A DNA stretch of 24,625 nucleotides, taken from IMG/VR virus record IMGVR_UViG_2534681649_000014, one strand, 5' to 3'. Position numbers and translations under genes: made by a program. The notes under the pieces are model-generated. The model saw only the letters and a program-made list of their open reading frames with translations, made no database searches and was not told the origin of the DNA. Positions 2,219-24,625 of this stretch are shown here, piece by piece. The stretch comes from a virus (lineage: Duplodnaviria > Heunggongvirae > Uroviricota > Caudoviricetes). Positions within the stretch are counted from its first letter, which is position 1. Every line of letters starts with the position of its first letter.

Positions 2219-2851
2219 TATTAGCTCCTTCTGATGCCATTCTATTTCAGGAAGGAGTGTCCGTTAAACTCAGGCTACCTCAGACAGTCCTGTTCTCCCA
2301 AATATCATGGTATTGATACGGGAGATTATGCCGTACAGGTACGACACGTTATGTCGTGCCAAAGGGGAGTGGATAGAAAAAATGGCGAAGATGCGAAAAG
2401 TTGATTAATGCATTGAAAAAAAATGAATTAATAATGAACTTGGGTAAAAGCGCCATCAAAATACGACACGACCTGTCGTATTTTGTGTTAGCCGGGAAAA
2501 GATATCTGCTACTTACTAAAATGATTTAGTGCTGAAAATATTTATAAGCCAATAAATAGACAGGTATTACGGAGTAACGCCCAGGCTATTTTAACGAGCC
2601 TGCTGTTTTATTGGCTCAAAAAACATATCCCATAGATGATCAGCCATACCCGCGTTAGTGAGCAAGGTATCCCTTGAGTAGCCAGGGCTGAAGACGCCCA
2701 TTGATGGGCGAAAACCAAGGTTCTGGCCGTTAAAGCGGCTATGTCGTTAAACACATCACCACCATATGCCATCCGGCTCACTTCGTCGGCCAAATTAGTG
2801 TGATATTCTTTCCAGAATTTCTGTTGTATCCACAACATAAGGCGATGATTG

Positions 2852-5800
2852 ATGGAGCAGTCTCTCAATTTTGAAATGTTGCGCAGCCAGTGGCCGGAAC
2901 TGGCAGAACTCGCATGTATGGCAGAGCGCTATGTTCACTCCGATCCGGAAAGCTGCCTGGTTAAGCTGCGCAACTACACCGAATTGATGGTGCGCTGGTT
3001 GTATCGTCAGGAGCGGTTGCCGGAAGGTATTAAGGCTAATCTTTACGATTTAATGAACGCTGATGTCTTTACCAGCATGATGCCGGAAGCCATCATCATG
3101 AAAATGGATGCGCTGCGTATCCATGGCAACCGTGCCGCGCACGGCGGACGTATCAAAGCTAAAGATACTTACTGGCTGCTCAAAGAAGCGTATTTGTTGG
3201 GAATTTGGCTGTATGTTCGCTACGCCCACGGTAATGTTGATGACTGCCCCAAATTTACACTCCCTCCATTAACACAATCTTCAGGTCGTGCAGATGAAAA
3301 ACGTCTGGAAGATGCAATCAAGGCTCAGGATGAAAGCCGTGAGCGCGAACTGGCGCTACAACGCGCACTACAGCAAGAACAGGAAAAGGCCGAACACCTC
3401 ACTCAACGCCTGAATGAAGCCAGAGCGCGTAACCAGCATGTTGCCGATATTCTCTCTATTGATGAAGCGGAAACCCGCCGTCGCCTGATTGACTCTCGCT
3501 TACTTGCAGCCGACTGGAATGTAGGGGAAGAACTTAAAAACACGGATCAAGTCACACAAGAACATCCAGTCAAAGAGCAACCCACCACCTCTGGTGACGG
3601 TTATGCAGACTATGTCTTGTGGGATGAGGCACACAAACCGTTGGCGGTGGTGGAAGCAAAAAAAACCAGCGTCAATGCCGAGCAAGGACGAATTCAGGCC
3701 CGGCTGTATGCAGACTGGCTGGAAAAAGAATACGGTCAGCGTCCGGTCATCTTCTACACCAACGGCTATGATATCTGGCTGTGGGATGACCATAAAACTC
3801 ATGGTTATCCCCCGCGTCGGGTGTTTGGCTTCTACAGCAAGGAAAGCCTGCAATATCTTATTCAGCAGCGTGAAACCCGTCTGCCGCTGAACAGAGTGCC
3901 ACACGTAAAAGATAACGAAGGTAAGGCCGTTGCCGGACGTTTGTACCAGCTCGAAACCATTGCCCGCGTCAGTGAACGGTTTACCAACAAGTACCGACAA
4001 TCGTTAATTGTTCAGGCTACGGGTACAGGCAAAACCCGCGTGGCAATTGCACTAAGCAAACTGATGATTGATGCCCGCTGGGTAAAACGCGTCCTGTTTC
4101 TTTGCGACCGTAAAGAACTGCGTAAACAGGCGGCAAATGCCTTTAATCAATTCACCAATGAGCCGCTGTATGTGGTCGGGAAATCGAAAAAAGCAGACAG
4201 GCAGAATGCCAGAATCTACATCGCTACCTATCCCGGTATGATGAAAATCATGGACCATTTCGATGTCGGTTATTTCGATTTGATCATCGCCGATGAATCC
4301 CACCGCTCTATCTACAACGTCTACGGCGATCTGTTTAAGTATTTTGATGCCCTCCAGATTGGCCTGACGGCCACGCCAATTGACATGGTGAGTAAAACCA
4401 CTTTCGGCCTGTTTGGTTGTGAAGGACGTATTCCTACCGCCAACTACAGCCTGGAAGATGCCATCGCCGATAACAATCTGGTTCCCTATGAGGTTGTCAC
4501 ACACACAACAGAATTCCTGCGCGAAGGTATCAAACGGGAGAAATTAAGCGACGCACAAATCCGCGAGCTGGAAGAACAAGGCATAGATCCCAATACGCTG
4601 GAGTTTGATGGCAAGGCGCTGGATGAGGCGATCTACAACAAAGACACCAACCGCTATATCCTGCGTAACCTGATGGAAAATGGCCTGAAAGATCGGGACG
4701 GCCAGTTGCCTGGTAAAACCATCATTTTCGCCCGTAACCACAAACACGCGCTGCTGTTGAATGAATTGTTCGACGATATGTACCCACAGTTTGCCGGGCG
4801 CTTCTGCCAGGTCATCGACAACTACGATCCCCGCGCCGAGCAACTGATTGATGATTTTAAAGGGCTGGATGAAAGCACCAACAAAGAGCTGACCATCGCT
4901 ATCTCCGTTGACATGCTCGATACCGGTATTGATGTCCCGGAAATTGTGAATCTGGTCTTTGCCAAACCGGTCAAATCAAAAGTGAAGTTCTGGCAGATGA
5001 TTGGCCGTGGTACGCGCCTCTGTCCGGGGTTGTACGGTTACGACGATAACGGCAAACCGCTGGATAAACAGAAATTCCGCATTTTCGATCACTGGGGCAA
5101 TTTTGAGTATCACGAGCTGCATACCGAAGAGGCGGAAGTCACAGCGACAAAATCGCTTGCGCAAAAACGCTTCGAAGCGTGGGTTATGCTGGGGGCCGCT
5201 GCGCAGCGTAAATTCGACAAACAGGCGGTGGATTTAGTTGCTCACCAGCTTCGCGAGCAAATCAACGCACTGGATGAAAAGTCGATTGCCGTACAGGAAA
5301 AATGGCAGCAGAAAGCGCAGTACAGTGATGAAAAGGTGCTGCGCCAGCTTTCTCCGAAAACACAGCAGGATCTGCTATCTGTTCTGGCCCCGTTGATGCA
5401 GTGGCTGGACGTGCGCGGGCAAAGCGATGCCATACGCTTTGATATGGATATTCTGGCGGCGCAAACTGCCCGTTATACCAACCCGGAAGAGCTGGATGTT
5501 CTCTGGCCGATCATCGTCGAAAAAGTGGAGCGCCTGCCGCCGCATTTGGCGCAGGTGCAGCAACAGGGACAACGAATCAATCAGCTTCGTAATTTAAGCT
5601 GGTGGAAGCAGGCCAGCCTGGAAGAGCTGGAGGATATTCGCATTCATTTGCGCGGTATCATGCACCTGATGGAAAAAGACGCGACGCCTAAATTTGGTTC
5701 GATACAGGTGGATATTACCGAAGATGCGAACCTGATCCAGACGGAGACCCGCAAAACTAATATCCGCTCGATTGATTTCAAACTCTATCGCCAGCAGGTT

Positions 5801-6265
5801 CAGGGGGCGCTGGAGCCGCTGTTCCAGCAAAACCCGGTTCTGAAGAAAATCCGCAACGGCGAGCCAGTCACGCAAAACGAGCTGGATGAGCTGGCGAAGC
5901 TGGTGCTGATCCAGAACCCCAACGTTGATATTCGTGCGTTGAAAGAGTTTTATCCGCAGGCAACCGCCAGCCTGGATAAACTTTTGCGTACCATCATCGG
6001 GATGGACAGCGACGCGGTGGAAGTGCGTTTTGCCCAGTTCGCCGCTGATAACAGCCTGACCAGCCAACAACTGCGCTTCCTGTCATTGCTGAAAAACCAC
6101 ATTCGCGATTACGGCACCATTGAAATGCGGCAGCTCTTTGAACAGCCTTTTACGCATATCCACAACGAAGGCGTTACCGGTGTGTTCCCTGATATAGCGC
6201 AAATCGCCCGCCTGCAAAAGATAGTCGAAGAGCTGGGTGTTGTGACCGACGCAGCGACGGTATAA
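2852..6265 (+). CDS. hsdR: Type I restriction enzyme R subunit (HsdR)
   Basis: About 1137 aa. It has a PD-(D/E)xK-like nuclease motif (DYVLWDEAHKPLAVVEAKK), helicase motif I (QATGTGKT) and motif II (IIADESH). It is followed by hsdM and hsdS. The start could be TTG at 2849 or ATG at 2852. Confidence 0.9.
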   Translation: MEQSLNFEMLRSQWPELAELACMAERYVHSDPESCLVKLRNYTELMVRWLYRQERLPEGIKANLYDLMNADVFTSMMPEAIIMKMDALRIHGNRAAHGGRIKAKDTYWLLKEAYLLGIWLYVRYAHGNVDDCPKFTLPPLTQSSGRADEKRLEDAIKAQDESRERELALQRALQQEQEKAEHLTQRLNEARARNQHVADILSIDEAETRRRLIDSRLLAADWNVGEELKNTDQVTQEHPVKEQPTTSGDGYADYVLWDEAHKPLAVVEAKKTSVNAEQGRIQARLYADWLEKEYGQRPVIFYTNGYDIWLWDDHKTHGYPPRRVFGFYSKESLQYLIQQRETRLPLNRVPHVKDNEGKAVAGRLYQLETIARVSERFTNKYRQSLIVQATGTGKTRVAIALSKLMIDARWVKRVLFLCDRKELRKQAANAFNQFTNEPLYVVGKSKKADRQNARIYIATYPGMMKIMDHFDVGYFDLIIADESHRSIYNVYGDLFKYFDALQIGLTATPIDMVSKTTFGLFGCEGRIPTANYSLEDAIADNNLVPYEVVTHTTEFLREGIKREKLSDAQIRELEEQGIDPNTLEFDGKALDEAIYNKDTNRYILRNLMENGLKDRDGQLPGKTIIFARNHKHALLLNELFDDMYPQFAGRFCQVIDNYDPRAEQLIDDFKGLDESTNKELTIAISVDMLDTGIDVPEIVNLVFAKPVKSKVKFWQMIGRGTRLCPGLYGYDDNGKPLDKQKFRIFDHWGNFEYHELHTEEAEVTATKSLAQKRFEAWVMLGAAAQRKFDKQAVDLVAHQLREQINALDEKSIAVQEKWQQKAQYSDEKVLRQLSPKTQQDLLSVLAPLMQWLDVRGQSDAIRFDMDILAAQTARYTNPEELDVLWPIIVEKVERLPPHLAQVQQQGQRINQLRNLSWWKQASLEELEDIRIHLRGIMHLMEKDATPKFGSIQVDITEDANLIQTETRKTNIRSIDFKLYRQQVQGALEPLFQQNPVLKKIRNGEPVTQNELDELAKLVLIQNPNVDIRALKEFYPQATASLDKLLRTIIGMDSDAVEVRFAQFAADNSLTSQQLRFLSLLKNHIRDYGTIEMRQLFEQPFTHIHNEGVTGVFPDIAQIARLQKIVEELGVVTDAATV

Positions 6266-6278
6266 TACACGCATGACA

Positions 6279-6304
6279 AGCCCCGGCAGCGGGGCTTTTG
6301 TATT
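6279..6304 (+). terminator. Putative rho-independent terminator between hsdR and hsdM
   Basis: GC-rich hairpin AAGCCCCG-GCAG-CGGGGCTT followed by TTTTGTATTT. Confidence 0.45.
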
Positions 6305-6328
6305 TAAAACAGGATATAAACGCTAACA

Positions 6329-7963
6329 ATGATTACTGGCGACTTAAAAAGTAAAATCGACGGACTATGGGAAGATTTCTGGGTGGGTGGTATCACCAAC
6401 CCGCTGACCGTAATCGAACAGATCACCTATCTGATGTATTCCCGGATGCTGGATACCCAGGAACAACGCGACGAAAAGCGTAAACAAATCGCGGGTATTG
6501 ATTTTAAACCGCGTTTTGCGCCAGAACAGCAGGAGTTCCGTTTCAGTCACTATAGCAACCTTGGCTCGGATGAGATGATGGAAGTGGTGCGCGATGGCGT
6601 ATTCCAGCATTTCCGTCAGCTCGGCCAGGCCGATGCTTCGAAGGTGACGCTGCTGGGCAACTTTATGAAAGATGCTCGTCTGGAGATTGTTAAGCCGTCA
6701 TTGCTGACCAAAGCGGTTGAGGTAATCAAAAACCTGCCATTGGATCGCGGCGACACCAAAGGCGACCTTTACGAATACCTGTTAAGCAAGCTGACAACTG
6801 CCGGAATCAACGGACAGTTCCGCACACCGCGCCACATTATCCGCACGATGGTTGAAATGATGGAGCCGAACCCGGCCCGCGGCGAGACGATTTGCGATCC
6901 CGCCTGTGGCACCGGTGGTTTTCTGGCAACCAGCTATGAATATCTGCTGGAGAAGTACAGCTCGCTGGAATCCATTCATACTGAGATTGGCACCAACGAA
7001 CGTGGCGAGCTGGAAGAGCAAAAAATCTTTACCGGCGATCTGCTGACACCGTGGCGTAACCATGTGGATAACAACATGTTCCACGGTTACGACTTTGACA
7101 CCACAATGCTACGTATCGCCGCCATGAACCTGATTATGCACGGCGTGGATGCGCCTGATATCCACTATCAGGACACAATGAGCCAGAGTTTCAGCACAAA
7201 CTTCCCGCAGGCCAGTAAAAACGCCTTCAACCTGATTCTGGCGAACCCGCCGTTTACCGGTTCACTGGACGAGGAAGATATCGACTCCACGCTGTCGGCA
7301 ATGGTGAAAACCAAAAAAACCGAACTACTGTTCCTGGCGCGTATTCTGCAAATGCTGAAAGTGGGCGGGCGCAGTGCCACTATCGTGCCGCAGGGCGTGC
7401 TGTTTGGCTCTAGCAAGGCGCACCAGTCACTTCGCAAAACGCTGGTGGAAGATAACCAACTGGAAACGGTGATCAATCTGCCTTCTGGTGTATTTAAACC
7501 TTACGCTGGCGTGGCGACGGCGATCCTGATCTTTACCAAAGGCGGTCAAACGGATGAGGTCTGGTTCTACGATCTACAAAATGACGGCTACAGCCTGGAT
7601 GATAAGCGCAACCCGATAAAAGACAACGATCTGCCGCATCTGCTGGCAAGCTGGAAGCATTACCGTACTTTACGCGGGCTACCGGTTGATAACTTTATGG
7701 GTAAGAAGTTAGCCTCGTTGCTTAAACAGCAGTACCCGGAAGGGATTAATGCTGGCGTTGATTTTAAAGATCGCACGCAGGCGGCGTTTGTTGTACCGAA
7801 AGCGGATATTGCTGCGCAGAAATACGATCTATCCATCAACCGTTATAAAGAAGTCGTGTATCAGGCGGAGGAATATGAAGATCCGAAGGTGATATTGAAG
7901 CGGTTAAAGGATCTGGAAAAAGAGATTCTGGCGGATTTGGATGAGCTGGAGGGGATGCTGTGA
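6329..7963 (+). CDS. hsdM: Type I restriction-modification system M subunit (N6-adenine DNA methyltransferase HsdM)
   Basis: 544 aa. SAM-binding motif I ([12 protein letters not shown]) and catalytic motif IV NPPF ([11 protein letters not shown]). Sits between hsdR and hsdS. Confidence 0.9.
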
Positions 7964-9042
7964 GTTCGGCGATGGTGAAGTTAGGGGATGTTATTAATGT
8001 TCACTACGGAAAAGCATTAAAAGCTGATCAGCGTGTATCGAATGGAAGTGTCCATGTGTTTGGTAGTTCAGGAATTGTCGGCAACCACGATAAAACGCTT
8101 TGCAGCTATCCCACGATAATTATTGGCCGCAAAGGCAGCGTTGGTGCTATTACCTGGGCTCCAAGCGGAGGCTGGATCATTGATACTGCTTATTACGTTG
8201 AGATCAAAGATAATAATAAGTTAGATCTCCGATACTTGTTTTATATTCTGAGCGGAATTGATCTCACTAAGAAAACGATTACCACAAGTATTCCTGGATT
8301 AAATAGAGACGATCTCTATGATACATTTATTAAATTACCACCTTTTGAAGAGCAGAAACGAATTGTGGATCTTCTCGATAAAGCTGAGGGTATACGCCAA
8401 AAACGTGAGCAATCCATCAAACTGGCTGATGATTTTTTGCGTGCTACGTTTGCTACAATGTATGGGAATCCTATTACAAACCCCAAAAAATGGCCTGTCC
8501 ATCTTATGGGAGAAATTATTGAATTTAAAGGTGGAAATCAACCACCTAAAAGTGATTTTATTTTTGAACCTAAACAGGGTTATATTAGATTAGTACAAAT
8601 TAGAGATTTTAAATCCGATAAATATGCGACGTACATTCCGCAAGAAAAAGCAAAACGTATTTTCGAAGTTGATGATGTTATGATTGCTCGTTATGGGCCA
8701 CCTGTGTTTCAAATACTTAGAGGTTTATCCGGCAGCTACAATGTAGCTTTAATGAAAGCTTCACCCAAAGAAAATATTAGGAAGGGGTTTATATTCTATC
8801 TTCTACAACTTCCGGAATATCATGATGTTGTTGTAAAAAACTCTGAAAGAACAGCAGGACAAACCGGTGTAAATCTTGAACTATTAAACAAATTCAATGT
8901 TCCCCTCCCACCTATATACTATCAAGATGAGATATTAGATAGATTAGCTAGAATTGAAAAATTTAAAGAAAAAATAGAAATATCATTAAATCATTTAGAA
9001 ATACAATTTTTATCACTACAGAAGAGATTAATAGGTTTTTAA
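7960..9042 (+). CDS. hsdS: Type I restriction-modification system specificity subunit (HsdS)
   Basis: 360-aa ORF whose GTG start overlaps the hsdM stop (GTGA). Markedly lower GC than hsdR/hsdM, as expected for target-recognition domains. It has two repeated halves (…LPPFEEQKRIVDLLDKAEGIRQKREQ… and …NVPLPPIYYQDEILDRLARIEKFKEK…) consistent with conserved HsdS spacer regions. An alternative ATG start is at 7972. Confidence 0.8.
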   Translation: MSSAMVKLGDVINVHYGKALKADQRVSNGSVHVFGSSGIVGNHDKTLCSYPTIIIGRKGSVGAITWAPSGGWIIDTAYYVEIKDNNKLDLRYLFYILSGIDLTKKTITTSIPGLNRDDLYDTFIKLPPFEEQKRIVDLLDKAEGIRQKREQSIKLADDFLRATFATMYGNPITNPKKWPVHLMGEIIEFKGGNQPPKSDFIFEPKQGYIRLVQIRDFKSDKYATYIPQEKAKRIFEVDDVMIARYGPPVFQILRGLSGSYNVALMKASPKENIRKGFIFYLLQLPEYHDVVVKNSERTAGQTGVNLELLNKFNVPLPPIYYQDEILDRLARIEKFKEKIEISLNHLEIQFLSLQKRLIGF

Positions 9043-9101
9043 ATCCTTAGTATCGAAATAAACATTAATTAATTATATTAAATTAAGATATTTTAGGAAA
9101 T

Positions 9102-9134
9102 TAAGGCGTCACTCTTAGGTAACGCCTTTTTTTA
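9102..9134. terminator. Putative bidirectional terminator between convergent hsdS and the downstream minus-strand gene fragment
   Basis: Hairpin AAGGCGT-(loop)-ACGCCTT followed by TTTTTTTAC. Confidence 0.45.
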
Positions 9135-9166
9135 CTATCTCGCCCCCTAAGAAGGTTATATCTTAC

Positions 9167-9935
9167 TTAATACCTGTGACTATTTTTGATATAATCATAA
9201 ATACACACTAATTTGCAAAAATTACTTGACAACACCTGAGTATTCATAGCTTCATCTATATGTTTTTTCAATATTTTGAGAAGCTCTCCCATATCGCGCT
9301 TGATTAATCCAGGCTCCATATAAGGCATCATTCTTAAAAAGAAACTGAAATCATAAGCAAGATATAACTCATTGACCCCCACCTTGACCTCAGGAACGGT
9401 TTCAGAGCGTCGTTTATCCCATCCTTGAGACTGAAAACTAATAGGAGTGATATTTAATCGTGATAAAACGCCACCTGAGAGTTCTGTTTCATTAATTATA
9501 CTCCCATCAGGATTAATTAATTTAGCGTGATTTAAGAAGTGAAAAATAGGAATGCGCGCATTGCCTTTGCATATATTTGGCAAAACATCATTAACAACAC
9601 ATCCCCAATCATAATATCCATTTTCAAATACAACCTCTCGGATGAGATCTACACGCTCCAGTCCAACCAATCCTTTAGTTGCCATCGATTCCGATTTTTT
9701 TACCATCGAAATAGCACCATATCCCACAACAAACTCAGTTGTACTGACCCCTTCTTCAATTTTCTCTGAATCCCTCACATATAATTTTCCTTTCGGATCA
9801 TCAGTTAAGACCAACTCATAAAGTTCATCTTTTATCATTCGGAATAAATGTGCTGGAATCCTTTTTTTAGTTTCACTCAGCACCTCAAATATTTCTTTAT
9901 AGGATGGTGCCTGAACATATTTTACCGGGATTTTT
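9167..9935 (-). pseudogene. Low-GC gene fragment (C-terminal portion) abutting IS1; possibly the distal part of the IS1-disrupted SIR2-like gene
   Basis: The ORF 9167-9949 has its predicted start codon inside the IS1 terminal repeat, so the native N-terminus is missing. Host-encoded sequence begins at 9935. AT-rich. No recognisable catalytic motif. Confidence 0.45.
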
Positions 9936-9950
9936 GGTAATGACTCCAAC

Positions 9951-10454
9951 TTACTGATAGTGTTTTATGTTCAGATAATGCCCGATGACCTTGTCATGCA
10001 GCTCCACCGATTTTGAGAACGACAGTGACTTCCGTCCCAGCCTTGCCAGATGTTGTCTCAGATTCAGATTATGTCGCTCAATGCGCTGAGTGTAACGCTT
10101 GCTGATAACGTGCAGCTTTCCCTTCAGGCGTGATTCATACAGCGGCCAGCCATCCGTCATCCATACCACGACCTCAAAGGCCGACAGCAGGCTCAGAAGA
10201 CGCTCCAGTGTGGCCAGAGTGCGTTCACCGAAGACGTGCGCCACAACCGTCCTCCGTATCCTGTCATACGCGTAAAACAGCCAGCGCTGACGTGATTTAG
10301 CACCGACGTAGCCCCACTGTTCGTCCATTTCAGCGCAGACAATCACATCACTGCCCGGTTGTATGCGCGAGGTTACCGACTGCGGCCTGAGTTTTTTAAG
10401 TGACGTAAAACCGTGTTGAGGCCAACGCCCATAATGCGTGCACTGGCGCGACAT
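9951..10454 (-). CDS. insB: IS1 transposase InsB (frame expressed as InsAB fusion)
   Basis: 167-aa ORF (…[72 protein letters not shown]) matching IS1 InsB. Confidence 0.85.
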
Positions 10455-19187: not shown

Positions 19188-19684
19188 TTTACTGCCCGTC
19201 GTGTGGACATGTTGCTCACACCCGTCGCGCACATTTCATGGACGATGGCACCAAGATAATGATTGCACAGTGCCGGAATATTTATTGCTCTGCGACATTT
19301 GAAGCGAGTGAAAGCTTTTTCTCTGACTGTAAAGATTCAGGAATGGAATACATTTCAGGCAAACAGAGATACCGCGATTCACTGACGTCAGCCTCCGGCA
19401 GTATGAAACGCCCGAAAAGAATGCTTGTTACCGGATATTGTTGTCGGAGATGTAAAGGCCTTGCACTGTCAAGAACATCGCGGCGTCTGTCTCAGGAAGT
19501 CACCGAGCGTTTTTATGTGTGCACGGATCCGGGCTGTGGTCTGGTGTTTAAAACGCTTCAGACCATCAACCGTTTTATTGTCCGCCCGGTCACGCCGGAC
19601 GAACTGGCAGAAAGCCTGCATGAAAAACAGGAACTGCCGCCAGTACGCTTAAAAACACAATCATATTCGCTGCGTCTGGAATGA
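19184..19684 (+). CDS. delta: P4 Delta-like late gene transactivator (tandem Ogr-type zinc-finger protein)
   Basis: 166 aa, the same length as P4 delta. Two Ogr-like Cys motifs (CPSCGH…CRNIYC and CCRRCKG…CTDPGCG). Confidence 0.85.
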   Translation: MIYCPSCGHVAHTRRAHFMDDGTKIMIAQCRNIYCSATFEASESFFSDCKDSGMEYISGKQRYRDSLTSASGSMKRPKRMLVTGYCCRRCKGLALSRTSRRLSQEVTERFYVCTDPGCGLVFKTLQTINRFIVRPVTPDELAESLHEKQELPPVRLKTQSYSLRLE

Positions 19685-19757
19685 GGGCTGCCGGTTAACA
19701 CCGGCCGTCGCCGCACACCGTATTTTTATTCTTCAGCATGATGAGAAAGAGATAACG

Positions 19758-20330
19758 ATGGAAAGCACAGCCTTACAGCAGGTCTTTGACACCTGTCAGA
19801 ATAACAAAGCAGCATGGCTGCAACGCAAAAATGAGCTGGCTGCGGCCGAACAGGAATATCTGCGGCTTCTGTCCGGGGAAGGCAGAAACGTCAGTCGCCT
19901 GGACGAATTACGCAATATTATCGAAGTCAGAAAATGGCAGGTGAATCAGGCTGCCGGTCGTTATATTCGTTCGCATGAAGCCGTTCAGCACATCAGCATC
20001 CGCGACCGGCTGAATGATTTTATGCAGCAGCACGGCACAGCACTGGCGGCGGCACTGGCACCGGAGCTGATGGGCTACAGTGAGCTGACGGCCATTGCCC
20101 GAAACTGTGCCATACAGCGTGCCACAGATGCCCTGCGTGAAGCCCTTCTGTCCTGGCTTGCGAAGGGGGAAAAAATTAATTATTCCGCACAGGATAGTGA
20201 CATTTTAACGACCATCGGATTCAGGCCTGACGCGACTTCGGTGGATGACAGCCGTGAAAAATTCACCCCTGCGCAGAACATGATTTTTTCGCGTAAAAGT
20301 GCGCAACTGGCATCACGTCAGTCTGTGTAA
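19758..20330 (+). CDS. psu: P4 Psu-like polarity suppression (Rho antagonist / capsid decoration) protein
   Basis: 190 aa, the same length as P4 Psu. Third gene after sid and delta. Confidence 0.8.
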   Translation: MESTALQQVFDTCQNNKAAWLQRKNELAAAEQEYLRLLSGEGRNVSRLDELRNIIEVRKWQVNQAAGRYIRSHEAVQHISIRDRLNDFMQQHGTALAAALAPELMGYSELTAIARNCAIQRATDALREALLSWLAKGEKINYSAQDSDILTTIGFRPDATSVDDSREKFTPAQNMIFSRKSAQLASRQSV

Positions 20331-20360
20331 AATTCCCCGAAAATCCGCCCGTTTTTACTG

Positions 20361-20397
20361 AAAAAAGCCATGCATCGATAAGGTGCATGGCTTTGCA
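20361..20397 (+). terminator. Putative terminator hairpin downstream of psu
   Basis: A-run, then stem GCCATGCA (20367-20374) pairing with TGCATGGC (20384-20391), then TTTGCATGCGTTTT. Confidence 0.4.
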
Positions 20398-20494
20398 TGC
20401 GTTTTCCTGCCTCATTTTCTGCAGACCGCGCCATTCCCGGCGCAGCCTGAGCGTGACTGTGCAACTGCATTAAAACCGCCCTGCAAAGCGGGCG

Positions 20495-20513
20495 GGCGTG
20501 GCGGGGAGAGCAT
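20495..20513. other. cos-like site (P2/P4-type cohesive end sequence)
   Basis: GGCGTGGCGGGGAGAGCAT matches the 19-nt P2/P4 cohesive end as I recall it (GGCGAGGCGGGGAAAGCAC) at 16 of 19 positions. It sits between psu and the hotspot cassette, where cos lies in P4. Confidence 0.45.
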
Positions 20514-20727
20514 TGCGCGCCATGCCGTGAGGATAATTATTTTATTAATATTCAGCTCATGACGTCTGTAATTGGGAAGAAGTGAAAAATGCTCATGTAA
20601 CTTATGAATATTTAACGTTAAACCGATCAAATTCTAGGGTGAAAACATTGCCCGCACGAAGTCAATGGGGTTATGCTTAATTTTTGATCATGATACATAT
20701 CCCAAGATAAGAAGCTAAGGAAAGAGC

Positions 20728-21807
20728 ATGAATGTAGGGCATCTCAATTTCTTCAAGGTTAATAAGTGCGGTTTATACAAGGTAAATGATGACAATACCT
20801 ATGGTTTAGAACTTAGCGAAACATTTGACCTCATACAGGATTGGGTGGGAACTAAATCTCTTGCACTCACGATACCATGGGATCCAAAAGAAAAACCAAA
20901 CAGTTCAAAGTGTTATTGCAAGGATATTTATAAGGATGAAAATACTGGTGATTTCTTAGTCATGTTATGGAAATCTGATACTGATAGTACGGGCTCTTTA
21001 TTAGGAGCTAGTGAAGACGGTGAAATCGGAAGCTCATCGGTGGTTAAATATACTAATAGCTACAGAGGGAAAAAAGTTATCTGGGGGCGGCCATGCTTTT
21101 ATTGGGTTATACCTGAACTTGAAACTATAGTATCCATTAAATTCGACCATTCTGTTTGTGATTCTGAACTATTTCAAGACTATGTACACTCATCTATTAC
21201 TAATAGAGTTAAACATAGCAAAAGGGTTAAAAATAAAACCGAGAAAGGTTATATAAGGCTATCTAATACCGATGACGAAGACTTATATAAATATATGTAC
21301 AGGTTTGATATGAAGCTCAGAAGCTTAGAAACCACTCATACTGAGTTAGGTAAACTAATACCAAAAATAACACACATAGTTCGCAGGGAAACTATTATTA
21401 TAAATCCAAATGATGCACGAGCTGATTGGTTAAAGACCTTTAGCACTCTCGTTCCATTTGTGTCCGGAAAGAAAAATGCCAAAACAAGACAAATTGAAAT
21501 AAAAGCAGAAGCAAAACCATCCTTGAATGAAGTTCAAGAAATCATTGAAAAGTATTCGGCTGAGGATAGAGAAAAACGTCTTTGGGACAATGTTGGATTT
21601 GCTACAGACAAGGGTATAACTTGGGTGGATAAATATAGAATGCGTGATATTCTCAATGTCCCTTCTGACGACTATTCAACATATTCCGCCGCATATATTT
21701 ACGAACAAATATCACACAAAAGAAAAGAATTTATTTCCCCTATATTAAAAGAATTAAAAGCATTACAATCTCAACCAAGAATAAAGAAAGCATCTGGAGA
21801 GGATTGA
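20728..21807 (+). CDS. Hypothetical protein, gene 1 of low-GC cassette in the P4 psu-int hotspot (359 aa)
   Basis: Long ORF with an AAGGAAAG RBS 5-6 nt upstream of the ATG. Strongly AT-rich relative to flanking P4 core genes. Lys/Asp/Glu-rich and soluble-looking. No motif I can assign. Confidence 0.7.
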   Translation: MNVGHLNFFKVNKCGLYKVNDDNTYGLELSETFDLIQDWVGTKSLALTIPWDPKEKPNSSKCYCKDIYKDENTGDFLVMLWKSDTDSTGSLLGASEDGEIGSSSVVKYTNSYRGKKVIWGRPCFYWVIPELETIVSIKFDHSVCDSELFQDYVHSSITNRVKHSKRVKNKTEKGYIRLSNTDDEDLYKYMYRFDMKLRSLETTHTELGKLIPKITHIVRRETIIINPNDARADWLKTFSTLVPFVSGKKNAKTRQIEIKAEAKPSLNEVQEIIEKYSAEDREKRLWDNVGFATDKGITWVDKYRMRDILNVPSDDYSTYSAAYIYEQISHKRKEFISPILKELKALQSQPRIKKASGED

Positions 21808-21810
21808 ATA

Positions 21811-22344
21811 TTGAAAGCTATAGCAGGCATAGCCAAATACACATGGATATACATGGCGATATTCATTATATCGCTGATGATTATTTCGTCATCCGATATT
21901 AACTATGTGTATAACGATTTTGCCAACTATTGCACTCTTCTCGTATCAGTTTCTGGAATGGTTTTTACTATTATGGGAATTTGGTTAGCGTTTCTTTACC
22001 CAAATGCTTTGCAGCGTATTGTGAACCCCAAAACTATAGAAACCGTTGATTTCACCGAACAACTGGAAGATACAAGAAGATTAGAAGCAATAGTTGGAAG
22101 TGTTCTAAAATCATCTTTCGTTATGATTACTTTACTTGTTGTATACTTAGTTAAACTAGTGTTTTTCAAAAGTCATCTTTATTTAGAGAGCCAAGATGTA
22201 ATAAAAAACACATCTTTAGCATTAATTATTGCTATTTCGTACATGCAGATTGAGGCAGTAATTAGCGTAATACTTGCAAATGTTATGTTTATCAATGATT
22301 TACATAACAAGCGAGAGCAAAGAGACATTGATGATCAAGTATGA
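21811..22344 (+). CDS. Hypothetical small integral membrane protein (about 4 predicted TM helices), gene 2 of hotspot cassette
   Basis: 177 aa from a TTG start at 21811, with a GGAGAGG RBS and 3 nt after the gene-1 stop. An alternative ATG is at 21853. Four hydrophobic segments (WIYMAIFIISLMIISS, LLVSVSGMVFTIMGIWLAFLY, SSFVMITLLVVYLVKLVFF, LALIIAISYMQIEAVISVILANVMFI). Confidence 0.6.
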   Translation: MKAIAGIAKYTWIYMAIFIISLMIISSSDINYVYNDFANYCTLLVSVSGMVFTIMGIWLAFLYPNALQRIVNPKTIETVDFTEQLEDTRRLEAIVGSVLKSSFVMITLLVVYLVKLVFFKSHLYLESQDVIKNTSLALIIAISYMQIEAVISVILANVMFINDLHNKREQRDIDDQV

Positions 22345-22351
22345 GGGAAAA

Positions 22352-23305
22352 ATGAAAAAGAATATACGTGTTATACCTAAAAATATTCATAGCAAGTTAA
22401 GAAGGCTTGGTAATACAGTTGTTGCTGGCACTTCTATTGCATTTACGGAAAACCAATTAAAAAGTGGAGCATTAGAGCACCTTGGAATATATTTTGATAA
22501 TGGTGTTAATGCTTATGAGACGTCGGTCATACCAGATCCATTGCAGGGTAAATATTCACTTAAAAATGTTTTTGGTGAAGAAATTGTCAGAAAAGACCTC
22601 CCAAAAGAAACTCATTACACTGAAATTGAGTCACCTAACTGGGGTGATAGCTCTAATGGTACACATACTGTTAGATTACCTTACGAGAAATATCCCAGAG
22701 ACATTATACCACCAACACTCATAGCCATTGAAATTAATCACAAACAGCCCTCGGACAGCCATTTCATATTTAACTTCAGAGTAACTAGAATTTTAGACAA
22801 ACAATCAAATAAGTTTGATGATGAATTATTATTTGATTTAAATCTTCTTCAAGAAAATCTTGGTAAATGTGGAATTGAGGATGCTGATAAACCCATATCG
22901 ACTTATGCTGATACACTTATAGTCTCATGGGAAATATTTCCACCAGGTAGTAAAGAAGAAACTTTAGCAAGAATTTTTAGAGGTAAAAATATCACTTCCG
23001 ACAAGAAAAATGTCGCTGAAAATAGATATGACTTCTTCATGAGTCTTGAACCTAAAAAAATCGTCACAGGAAACAGCACGTTCAGTAATTATATTGGAGC
23101 TATGCTGGAGGACGATTTGGTTGTATTTGAAAACATAGAATATGGTAATGCTATATATATCCTCTATGATAACTGGGATGATATCAGCAAGCTATCTCGA
23201 ATTGACTTATTATCAGGAAGAGCAGGAAGTAATTTCGATAGAATAATCCATAGTGGCAATTGGAAAGATGAAGTACGAAAAAAAGTTGCTGCTGGAAGAT
23301 TATGA
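22352..23305 (+). CDS. Hypothetical protein, gene 3 of hotspot cassette (317 aa)
   Basis: ATG at 22352 is 7 nt after the gene-2 stop, with a GAGGG RBS. The ORF-track start at 22274 overlaps gene 2 and is probably an extension. AT-rich. No recognisable motif. Confidence 0.7.
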   Translation: MKKNIRVIPKNIHSKLRRLGNTVVAGTSIAFTENQLKSGALEHLGIYFDNGVNAYETSVIPDPLQGKYSLKNVFGEEIVRKDLPKETHYTEIESPNWGDSSNGTHTVRLPYEKYPRDIIPPTLIAIEINHKQPSDSHFIFNFRVTRILDKQSNKFDDELLFDLNLLQENLGKCGIEDADKPISTYADTLIVSWEIFPPGSKEETLARIFRGKNITSDKKNVAENRYDFFMSLEPKKIVTGNSTFSNYIGAMLEDDLVVFENIEYGNAIYILYDNWDDISKLSRIDLLSGRAGSNFDRIIHSGNWKDEVRKKVAAGRL

Positions 23306-23322
23306 TCAAAGTGTTTAATACA

Positions 23323-23355
23323 GAAATAAACGCCTATATATTATAGGCGTTTATT
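23323..23355. terminator. Bidirectional rho-independent terminator between convergent cassette gene 3 and int
   Basis: Near-perfect palindrome AAATAAACGCCTATA-TAT-TATAGGCGTTTATTT with A/T runs on both sides. Confidence 0.55.
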
Positions 23356-23359
23356 TTCA

Positions 23360-24625
23360 CTATCGACTTTTGTTTATTTTAGCAAAATCATAAGGTGTTA
23401 TTGTTTTGCCCTTATTTGCTTGGAGATAATCAGCCCACCATTGAACCATCAATCGACGTTCATCCAAATGTTCAGAGGTGTGAATATAAGCAGCACGTAC
23501 ATTATTACGCTCTGAATGGCTCAACTGTCGTTCTATAGCATCTTCACTCCATAATCCGGACTCGCCCAACGCACCACGGGCCATCGTTCTAAACCCGTGC
23601 CCGCAAACTTCGGTTTTCGTGTCATAGCCCATCGCACGCAATGCGCTATTTACCGTGTTTTCGCTCATAACCTTAGTTGCGTCATGATCACCCGGAAAAA
23701 GCAGCTCTTTATCTCCACTAATCTGCTTTAACTGGTTTAGCAAAATCATCGCCTGCCGACTAAGCTGAACGATATGCTCCTCTTTCATCTTCATGCCACG
23801 GTACGAGTAACGCACACCTTTAATTTCTTCTCGTTTTGCAGGTACTCGCCAGAGAGATTTATCGAAGTCGAACTCATCCCAACGCGCGAAACGTAACTCA
23901 CTGGAACGCACAAAAGTTAGTAAGGAAAGCTCAACCGCGATCCGCGTCATTACACGGCCACGATATGCAGCAAGACGAGCAAGAAACTCAGGGAACCGGC
24001 TGGAGGGCAAAGCGGGGTAATGTCGCGCTTTGGTTGTCGATAGCGCACCGGCCATATCACTGGCTGGATTTGAGTCGATGTAATCGTTCTGTACTGCATA
24101 ACGCATAATAGCCGTGACACGCTGCTGAAGGCGCTGTGCAACGTCATGCTTACCACTGGCATCAACTTTTTTAATCGGGGCTAATAGGTGGCTAGTTTTG
24201 AGCTGACGGATGTCAGATGAACCAATATGAGGAAAGATATAAAGCTCAAGATAACGTAGAACGCGTGATCGGTGATCTTCACTCCAGCGCTTATTACTAG
24301 CATGCCATTCACGAGCGATAGTTTCGAAAGAATATGCCCCCGAATTCTCGGCCTGAGCTTCTTTCTGTTCGGCTTTTGGATCAATGCCCTGCGCTAACAG
24401 CTTTTTAGCTTGATCGCGCTTTGCTCTTGCCTGAGCAAGCGTCACAGTAGGCCAAACACCAAACGCGAGACGATCCTCTTTTTTGTCAGAGGGACGTCTG
24501 TATTTCATGCGCCAGTATTTGGAACCTTTGGCCGAAACCTCAAGATACAAACCACCACCATCGGCCATTTTGTAGGTTTTGTCTTTTGGCTTTGCGGTCT
24601 CGACCTGTCTGGCGTTGAGCTTCAT
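23360..24625 (-). CDS. int: P4-family tyrosine integrase of the P4-like satellite element (start codon at the last base of the window)
   Basis: 421 aa. N-terminus MKLNARQVETAKPKDKTYKMADGGGLYLEVSAKGSKYWRMKY and C-terminus …CGHGFRTMARG…VRAAYIH…, similar to but distinct from the integrase at 11481-12749. The tRNA target is expected just beyond the window. Confidence 0.9.
   Translation of the reverse strand: MKLNARQVETAKPKDKTYKMADGGGLYLEVSAKGSKYWRMKYRRPSDKKEDRLAFGVWPTVTLAQARAKRDQAKKLLAQGIDPKAEQKEAQAENSGAYSFETIAREWHASNKRWSEDHRSRVLRYLELYIFPHIGSSDIRQLKTSHLLAPIKKVDASGKHDVAQRLQQRVTAIMRYAVQNDYIDSNPASDMAGALSTTKARHYPALPSSRFPEFLARLAAYRGRVMTRIAVELSLLTFVRSSELRFARWDEFDFDKSLWRVPAKREEIKGVRYSYRGMKMKEEHIVQLSRQAMILLNQLKQISGDKELLFPGDHDATKVMSENTVNSALRAMGYDTKTEVCGHGFRTMARGALGESGLWSEDAIERQLSHSERNNVRAAYIHTSEHLDERRLMVQWWADYLQANKGKTITPYDFAKINKSR

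Follow-up and report, generated by a model that had tools for sequence, protein, structure and literature searches.

The DNA analysed here (IMG/VR virus record IMGVR_UViG_2534681649_000014, 24,625 nt, Caudoviricetes; referred to below as the window) carries a P4-like satellite, and between the cos-like site and the integrase gene of this element lie three tightly packed, co-directional, low-GC genes. The original prediction, made from the sequence alone, had drawn attention to this cassette, and its coordinates, spacers and base composition were all reproduced. Gene 1 (20728-21807, + strand) starts with ATG behind an AAGGA ribosome-binding site (RBS) and encodes a soluble protein of 359 aa with a RexA/RdgC-like predicted fold, a putative sensor matching PADLOC PDC-M18A. 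Gene 2 (21811-22344, + strand) starts with TTG, is preceded by the RBS GGAGAGGA and encodes a 177-aa putative membrane effector matching PDC-M18B, while gene 3 (22352-23305, + strand), with an ATG start and a GAGGGA RBS, encodes a soluble protein of 317 aa belonging to a widespread uncharacterised family. A Shine-Dalgarno sequence was present upstream of each gene, and only 3 nt separate the TGA of gene 1 from the TTG of gene 2. The GC content over positions 20501-23500 was 0.32-0.37, as compared with 0.51-0.61 in the P4 core.

Upstream of gene 1 there is an AT-rich leader of 207 nt (20521-20727, + strand), in which a promoter is presumed. The leader had been described as promoter-like, a claim that was not confirmed by a consensus scan, which gave no sigma-70-like site on the + strand; the leader also yielded no LexA box, leaving SOS control of the P4 cassette unsupported, and Rfam detected no structured RNA in the cassette or its leader. 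Between gene 3 and int, a perfect 15-bp hairpin with A and T runs on both sides (23323-23355) forms a bidirectional terminator, and its computed folding energy of -20.1 kcal/mol (z = -7.2) agreed with the strong terminator proposed at this position.

The left core border of the site is psu (polarity suppression; 19758-20330, + strand), a 190-aa open reading frame (ORF) annotated as 'phage polarity suppression protein' in a near-identical RefSeq locus. It is followed by a P4-type cos-like site (20495-20513), the 19-mer GGCGTGGCGGGGAGAGCAT, which recurs unchanged as the cos-proximal sequence in pFR90, a Klebsiella P4-like clone (Rousset et al.), and matches P4 at 16 of 19 positions, with three differences; the variable cargo starts a few bases beyond it. 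The right border is int (23360-24625, - strand), a 421-aa ORF for a P4-type tyrosine integrase; in related RefSeq loci the tyrosine recombinase gene is followed by a tRNA-Leu. The P4 immunity RNAs (C4 antisense RNA, isrK and the a1b1 targets; 17291-17576, - strand) were matched above the Rfam gathering scores, at 74.9, 69.7 and 49.5 bits, and this RNA-based immunity region appears intact. Near-identical RefSeq loci annotate the alpha primase-helicase, an epsilon-like derepression gene, an Icd-like gene, sid, delta, psu and int, and positions 12899-24625 are collinear with RefSeq NZ_CP104117, while the rest of the window is not. Taken together, psu, delta, sid, alpha, the Icd-like gene and the C4/isrK RNAs confirm that the element is a P4-like satellite.

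The psu-int locus of P4 is an experimentally established hotspot of anti-phage systems, whose cargo is variable and dispensable for the P4 life cycle (Rousset et al., 2022). The cassette has the features of such cargo, since it lies between psu/cos and a P4-type int, differs in composition from the core and occupies a site of variable content. Its interpretation as horizontally acquired hotspot cargo was thus supported by position, GC content and patchy occurrence: the cassette was present in only 7 of 5,426 complete Escherichia coli genomes, at the psu-int position every time, and the P4 core matched many more.

The same trio was found in the same place in a Klebsiella P4-like element, in three IMG/VR satellites, in a metagenomic contig whose gene 3 was 77% identical at the protein level and 74% at the nucleotide level, and in a divergent P4-like element whose cassette was 89% identical in nucleotide sequence. 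The gene order was kept in the Klebsiella, metagenomic and divergent copies, so that the synteny check proposed for the trio was passed, and all three genes were retained in every enterobacterial P4 copy examined, across different P4 backbones and down to the 74% nucleotide identity of gene 3 in the metagenomic contig. Against the 89%-identical copy, the ratio of non-synonymous to synonymous substitution rates (dN/dS) was 0.06 for gene 1, 0.13 for gene 2 and 0.09 for gene 3, with a range of 0.09-0.15 for gene 3 across copies, and each gene had hundreds of homologues. These low ratios and homologues argue that genes 1-3 are not chance ORFs, and confirm that all three are real and under purifying selection. 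The start of gene 2 has turned over (21805-21813): diverged copies read TGAATG, with an ATG at the position equivalent to 21808, where the window has ATA followed by the TTG.

As regards novelty, the cassette turned out to be already catalogued as a candidate system. Rousset et al. (2022) list it in their Table S1B as System 4 of the P4 hotspot (169 loci, described as 'RexA + 4TM'), with a comment that it 'might be a distant homolog of RexAB', the weak RexA homology thus having been noted independently, and an 'occasional' third protein, which is gene 3. In their Table S1A, at least 13 entries have the exact gene 1 and gene 2 proteins accompanied by a third, and WP_001100521, WP_032149796 and the gene 3 sequence all appear under System 4 in Table S1, in the same hotspot. 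In PADLOC, PDC-M18A matched residues 5-336 of the 359 of gene 1 (6.3e-39) and PDC-M18B matched residues 9-175 of the 177 of gene 2 (3e-15), and the two genes lie next to each other, 3 nt apart. The PDC systems of PADLOC are unpublished, unvalidated candidates; the Domainator paper likewise labelled P4 hotspot cluster 4 as PDC-M18. A literature search by protein accession found no paper. In view of these listings, the description of the cassette as a novel system was set aside, and the statement that none of its proteins belonged to a known family failed for genes 1 and 2, which also matched PHROGs 24371 and 37654, respectively, and stood for gene 3.

The position of the cassette is that of the P4 genes gop, beta and cII, and BLASTP of genes 1-3 against Gop, Beta and CII gave nothing better than E = 7.5, ruling out that identity; the claim that these are neither ordinary gop/beta/cII genes nor housekeeping genes was upheld. 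The same comparison bears on the possibility that the cassette serves to stabilise the satellite, as an addiction or toxin-antitoxin-type module in which the membrane protein or the gene 3 product would be the toxin and phage would not be sensed. Small membrane proteins are commonly toxins, P4 gop and beta behave as a toxin-antitoxin pair at this very position, and gene 3 homologues often lie behind LexA-like repressors, as might be expected for a product that needs to be kept silent. We nevertheless consider this explanation improbable, at the lower end of those weighed here save one: besides the lack of similarity to gop, beta or cII, no toxin-antitoxin family was matched in Pfam, NCBIfam or PADLOC, and simple toxin-antitoxin pairs do not typically consist of proteins of such lengths (359, 177 and 317 aa) that are strongly conserved from phylum to phylum. 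Even such a reading would not exclude defence, because gop-beta-cII itself proved to be anti-phage.

Modelling of the gene 1 protein predicted the two-domain fold of RexA and RdgC, with a globular domain that is split, plus one for dimerisation. Gene 2 had been said to encode four transmembrane (TM) helices, and hydropathy analysis indeed revealed four hydrophobic segments, at approximately residues 7-31, 40-63, 91-124 and 135-161. Gene 1 and RexA have a short motif in common (H216-IVRRETI and H150-FIGRTTV, respectively), which was not significant. Because no link to RexA or RexB was found at the sequence level, the Rex analogy rests on predicted fold, topology and gene context, and by this analogy the gene 1-2 pair is regarded as working like Rex and is not filed as a member of the RexA/RexB families.

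The genomic context of the pair is consistent with this comparison. The strongest evidence was provided by unrelated temperate phages, where homologous pairs were observed at the position of rexAB. Vibrio phage 10N.222.45.E8_PE002 carries homologues of gene 1 (44.5% identity) and gene 2 (37% identity), in this order, directly downstream of a 186-type CI repressor gene and co-directional with it; in Pseudomonas phage Ps59, a gene 1-2-like pair belongs to the operon of the repressor and lies upstream of the lysis genes. The P4 copy in the window is itself not in a repressor operon. Behind the CI repressor gene of the Vibrio phage (PQ189285, P2/186-like), the Rex-like pair is stacked with Septu (PtuA/PtuB) and then a type IV restriction enzyme (2441-10448), a compact prophage defence hotspot. 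In Pseudoalteromonas the pair was found in a chromosomal defence island, between restriction-like helicases.

The start of gene 3 at 22352 was backed by an N terminus, MKKNIRKIP, conserved in 48 homologues; RefSeq/PGAP places the start at 22295, an upstream ATG that overlaps gene 2. Since the 48 homologues begin at the equivalent of MKKNIRKIP, the ATG at 22352 is the real start. Gene 3 had no match in Pfam, NCBIfam, PHROGs or PADLOC, and 46 divergent relatives likewise matched no curated family; sequence profiles found nothing in the PDB, and the AlphaFold2 (AF2) model, with a predicted local distance difference test (pLDDT) score of 84.8, had no convincing fold match, including in a Foldseek search against viral structures.

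The suggestion that genes 2 and 3 resemble the Kiwa pair KwaA/KwaB reflects a superficial likeness only, in that a soluble protein of about 315 aa comes after a small one with several TM helices. Neither gene matched KwaA or KwaB in PADLOC or DUF4868 in Pfam at E <= 1, none of the 46 divergent gene 3 relatives did so, and gene 2 is a PDC-M18B protein whose conserved partner is gene 1. The analogy is refuted at the level of family membership, and we give a Kiwa-like pair next to no credence.

The gene 3 family proved to be both large and highly conserved. We collected 552 homologues, with approximately 50% identity between those of Enterobacteria and those of Patescibacteria or Thermodesulfobacteriota, and the family comprised 1,677 clusters in a representative library at 50% identity, spanning Patescibacteria, Planctomycetes, Acidobacteria, Actinobacteria, Proteobacteria and Bacteroidota. 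Among the best 150 matches, nearly all were complete proteins, about 320 aa in length, that carried no additional domain. The polar residues with the highest conservation lie in the C-terminal half (R225, Y247, E260, N266, Y269, R283 and H300, the last six being invariant), and this pattern of conservation suggests that they may form a binding or catalytic site.

The neighbours of the gene 3 homologues are those typical of immune loci. A LexA/cI-like S24 repressor gene lies immediately upstream in at least five independent loci, two of which encode a protein of about 70 aa between repressor and homologue. Shedu was found directly downstream of one homologue, PDC-M36A-like genes adjoin homologues in two loci, Septu is also a neighbour, and further neighbours include DUF4238, GajB-like helicases, a type III methylase, a large helicase, DUF6119 and a KAP NTPase. 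A type I restriction-modification gene, hsdR, near one homologue (L029) was assigned from the N-terminal sequence of HsdR only.

Several of these loci deserve a separate description. A triad of a LexA-like S24 repressor, a 69-70 aa protein and a gene 3 homologue recurs in L003 (5156-6975) and L036 (3136-4981); the small protein looked Myb/SANT-like by eye in the former and had one weak DUF3892 match in the latter, where a Shedu (SduA_C) gene follows the triad and a divergent ParB-methylase gene lies upstream. In L025 (4438-6966) and L029 (5941-8444), from two unrelated genomes (Vampirovibrio and Anaerolineae), a PDC-M36A-like protein of about 500 aa adjoins the gene 3 homologue, the genes being co-directional with a 16-nt gap in one locus and convergent in the other, a possible recurrent association. 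A metagenome contig (ERZ27298490 k141_256353, L006, 27-7002) carries two gene 3 paralogues (323 and 333 aa) in one island, the first after an S24 repressor gene and with an AAA_15/AAA_21 ATPase gene between the two; DUF2188, pEK499_p136, a LexA-S24-DNA-methylase fusion and a MazG-like gene lie nearby. DUF2188 was also directly upstream of the homologue in another locus (L018).

The distribution of the genes bears on whether they work as one unit. Genes 1 and 2 were absent from all of the approximately 25 non-enterobacterial gene 3 contexts examined, gene 3 was absent from the non-enterobacterial gene 1-2 loci examined, and outside Enterobacteriaceae its homologues were often solitary. As a conserved unit of two adjacent genes, the pair was found without gene 3 in Serratia and Yersinia P4-like elements, in Pseudomonas, in Pseudoalteromonas and in phages. 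The original prediction had proposed one autonomous three-gene system, a view at odds with these differing distributions. Judged from its genomic company, gene 3 behaves as a separable, independently mobile defence-island gene that would be an add-on to the pair in Enterobacteriaceae. Our best reading, held with slightly more belief than doubt, is that the cassette consists of two modules transcribed as one operon.

On balance, and to a similarly modest degree, we favour the interpretation that the cassette combines a Rex-like pair of sensor and membrane effector, which would abort infection, with an independently mobile gene 3 that probably encodes a further anti-phage protein. Genes 1 and 2 would form the first module, a Rex-like exclusion or abortive-infection pair. 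By analogy with lambda RexA/RexB, the cytoplasmic gene 1 protein, with its predicted RexA/RdgC fold, would sense the infecting phage; since RexA is a dimeric protein that binds DNA non-specifically, the signal is probably phage DNA or a protein-DNA intermediate. The gene 1 protein would then engage its small four-helix inner-membrane partner, the gene 2 protein, which would dissipate the membrane potential and halt the growth of both cell and phage, protecting sister cells and the satellite. What the analysis shows is how the genes are arranged and conserved, the families and folds to which they were assigned and their genomic associations; we infer the trigger, the contact between the two proteins, the depolarisation and the anti-phage phenotype. 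Gene 3 would be the second module, appended in Enterobacteriaceae and most likely encoding a second, separately acting anti-phage protein.

A number of observations weigh against this interpretation. RexA (Pfam PF15969) was not matched at E <= 1 by gene 1 or by any of 54 homologues, and hhalign gave the gene 1 family a probability of 0.5% against lambda RexA and of 0.25% against a 24-sequence RexA alignment, so that homology to RexA at the sequence level was rejected. For gene 2, the hhalign probability against RexB was 0.7% and Pfam gave no match; homology to RexB was thus rejected as well, the likeness being one of topology only. The mechanism of lambda Rex is itself still debated. The cloned System 4 representative, the two-gene pFR81 ('RexA + 4TM') from E. 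coli IAI75, is the only relative that has been tested. It was challenged with a panel of eight phages, and Rousset et al. (2022) place it solely in their Table S2B, among further tested systems without validation; this negative bears weakly on the present variant, because pFR81 has two genes and its proteins are only 29% and 36% identical to those of genes 1 and 2. There are also apparent frameshifts in gene 2 of the Klebsiella copy (L042, 4459-4860) and in gene 1 of one IMG/VR copy (L048, 3378-4456), with gene 3 intact in both, which reflect either decay of the pair or sequencing errors. Around half of the gene 3 homologue loci had no recognisable defence neighbour. Finally, the 7-nt spacing and the retention of the trio in all enterobacterial copies mean that gene 3 may be functionally integrated with the pair and not independent of it.

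This last point is the core of an alternative in which the three genes form one integrated system, the Rex-like pair of this lineage requiring gene 3 as its sensor, regulator or effector. Only 7 nt separate the stop codon of gene 2 from the ATG of gene 3, whose RBS overlaps that stop codon, neither a terminator nor a promoter was detected between the two genes, and the trio has stayed together across the enterobacterial P4 copies; moreover, the gene 3 family lies beside many different defence genes, as promiscuous accessory components do. A required component is hard to reconcile with a pair that occurs without gene 3 in P4-like elements of Yersinia and Serratia, in Pseudomonas, in Pseudoalteromonas and in phages, with gene 3 homologues that lack genes 1 and 2 in all non-enterobacterial loci examined, with the merely 'occasional' status of gene 3 in System 4 and with the Klebsiella copy in which gene 2 is frameshifted and gene 3 intact. 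We consider full integration unlikely, but as the foremost of the alternatives.

RexA also has a second role in lambda, acting on the bistable lysis-lysogeny switch independently of RexB and binding CI and Cro, and this role counts as a further point against a purely exclusionary pair. It raises the possibility that the pair, with or without gene 3, is not primarily anti-phage and tunes the lysis-lysogeny decision of the satellite or its helper, or host physiology. The homologous pairs beside repressors in prophage immunity regions would fit such a function, as would the lack of validated protection by the tested relative pFR81. The pair is found in defence settings too, next to Septu and a type IV restriction enzyme in the Vibrio phage and in the Pseudoalteromonas island, which has no prophage switch nearby; in addition, P4 hotspot cargo is dispensable for the P4 life cycle, and P4 immunity is based on the C4 RNA and not on CI and Cro. 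A developmental role for the pair is, in our judgement, improbable, if marginally less so than an addiction module.

As for gene 3, a broader proposal can be put forward only tentatively, as a possibility that we regard as clearly short of even. Gene 3 may be the founding member of a novel and very widespread family whose proteins act against phages or in conflicts with them and have a fold not described before. In many mobile elements the family would be kept under LexA/cI-like S24 repressors and released on DNA damage or infection; it would be recruited next to diverse systems (the Rex-like pair, Shedu, Septu and PDC-M36) and would provide a second, mechanistically new layer of immunity in the P4 cassette.

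A large share of E. coli carries P4 satellites, and the cargo of their hotspot shapes which phages infect a strain. The cassette was known as a candidate system (System 4, PDC-M18); what is added here is fold-level support, from structure prediction, for the Rex hypothesis, the observation of homologous pairs at the rexAB position in unrelated temperate phages, and evidence that the cassette is composite and that the gene 3 family is a large unannotated group tied to defence islands and LexA-like repressors. If the Rex-like reading is true, the lambda Rex paradigm would extend to a family unrelated in sequence and related in structure, which is found across many Proteobacteria, in satellites, in the immunity regions of prophages and in defence islands, and which would offer a second tractable system for the unresolved Rex mechanism. 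The gene 3 family is large, has no database annotation and keeps genomic company typical of immune genes; its function, if shown, would annotate thousands of proteins and could reveal a new effector or sensor fold, as well as a link between LexA-type repressors and defence. That gene 3 stands for a new defence family is the possibility of higher value.

In the remainder of the window, a complete type I restriction-modification operon lies at 2849-9042 (+ strand) in the order hsdR, hsdM, hsdS, where the hsdR product (1,138 aa) has DUF4145 at its N terminus and ends in EcoEI_R_C, and hsdS lies in a low-GC stretch (0.31-0.41). Insertion-sequence genes encode an IS66-family transposase (7-1038), an IS3-family integrase-core ORF (1063-1881, - strand) and an IS1 transposase (9951-10454, - strand), the last lying between two low-GC ORFs of 260 and 146 aa (9167-9949 and 10677-11117, - strand) that had no Pfam match. 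This region to the left of the satellite is a mosaic, collinear with no complete E. coli genome in the collection (best coverage, 65%). A second tyrosine integrase of the P4 type (11481-12827, - strand; Arm-DNA-bind_3, Phage_int_M and Phage_integrase), which lies just beyond the satellite's alpha end, suggests tandem or remnant integrative elements at the site. Past the right end of the window, in the closest complete genome, NZ_CP104117 (L001, 18454-28724), the P4 int is followed by another integrase and not by tRNA-Leu; the second small element there has genes for an AbiTii-domain protein, for HNH endonucleases, for a capsid protein and for a DEAD-box helicase, and therefore looks like a further satellite-like island in tandem.

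Compared with known systems, the cassette shares its locus with several. Kiwa is also found in P4 hotspots. P4 gop-beta-cII occupies the same cos-int locus with three genes of non-essential cargo, of which gop encodes a small membrane protein, but no protein pair shows sequence similarity. System 4/PDC-M18 has the same protein families in the same hotspot and includes the exact proteins; its cloned representative has two genes, whereas the window contains the rarer three-gene subtype. The RexA homologues of actinobacteriophages (gp30 of Sbash, gp44 of CarolAnn and gp42 of Toast), compared by description, are divergent Rex-like proteins of temperate phages described as dimeric DNA binders, and are recognised relatives of RexA, whereas gene 1 would be related by predicted fold only. 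From lambda RexAB itself the pair differs in that neither gene has detectable sequence or profile homology, in that gene 1 exceeds RexA by 80 aa and in that a long charged loop separates TM2 from TM3 in gene 2; the present copy lies in a P4 hotspot and not in a prophage immunity region, is joined by a third gene, and a phenotype is known for lambda alone. What the two have in common is their arrangement: gene 1 is followed at once by a small four-TM protein, gene 2, and in temperate phages the homologous pairs lie directly downstream of the repressor, as in cI-rexA-rexB.

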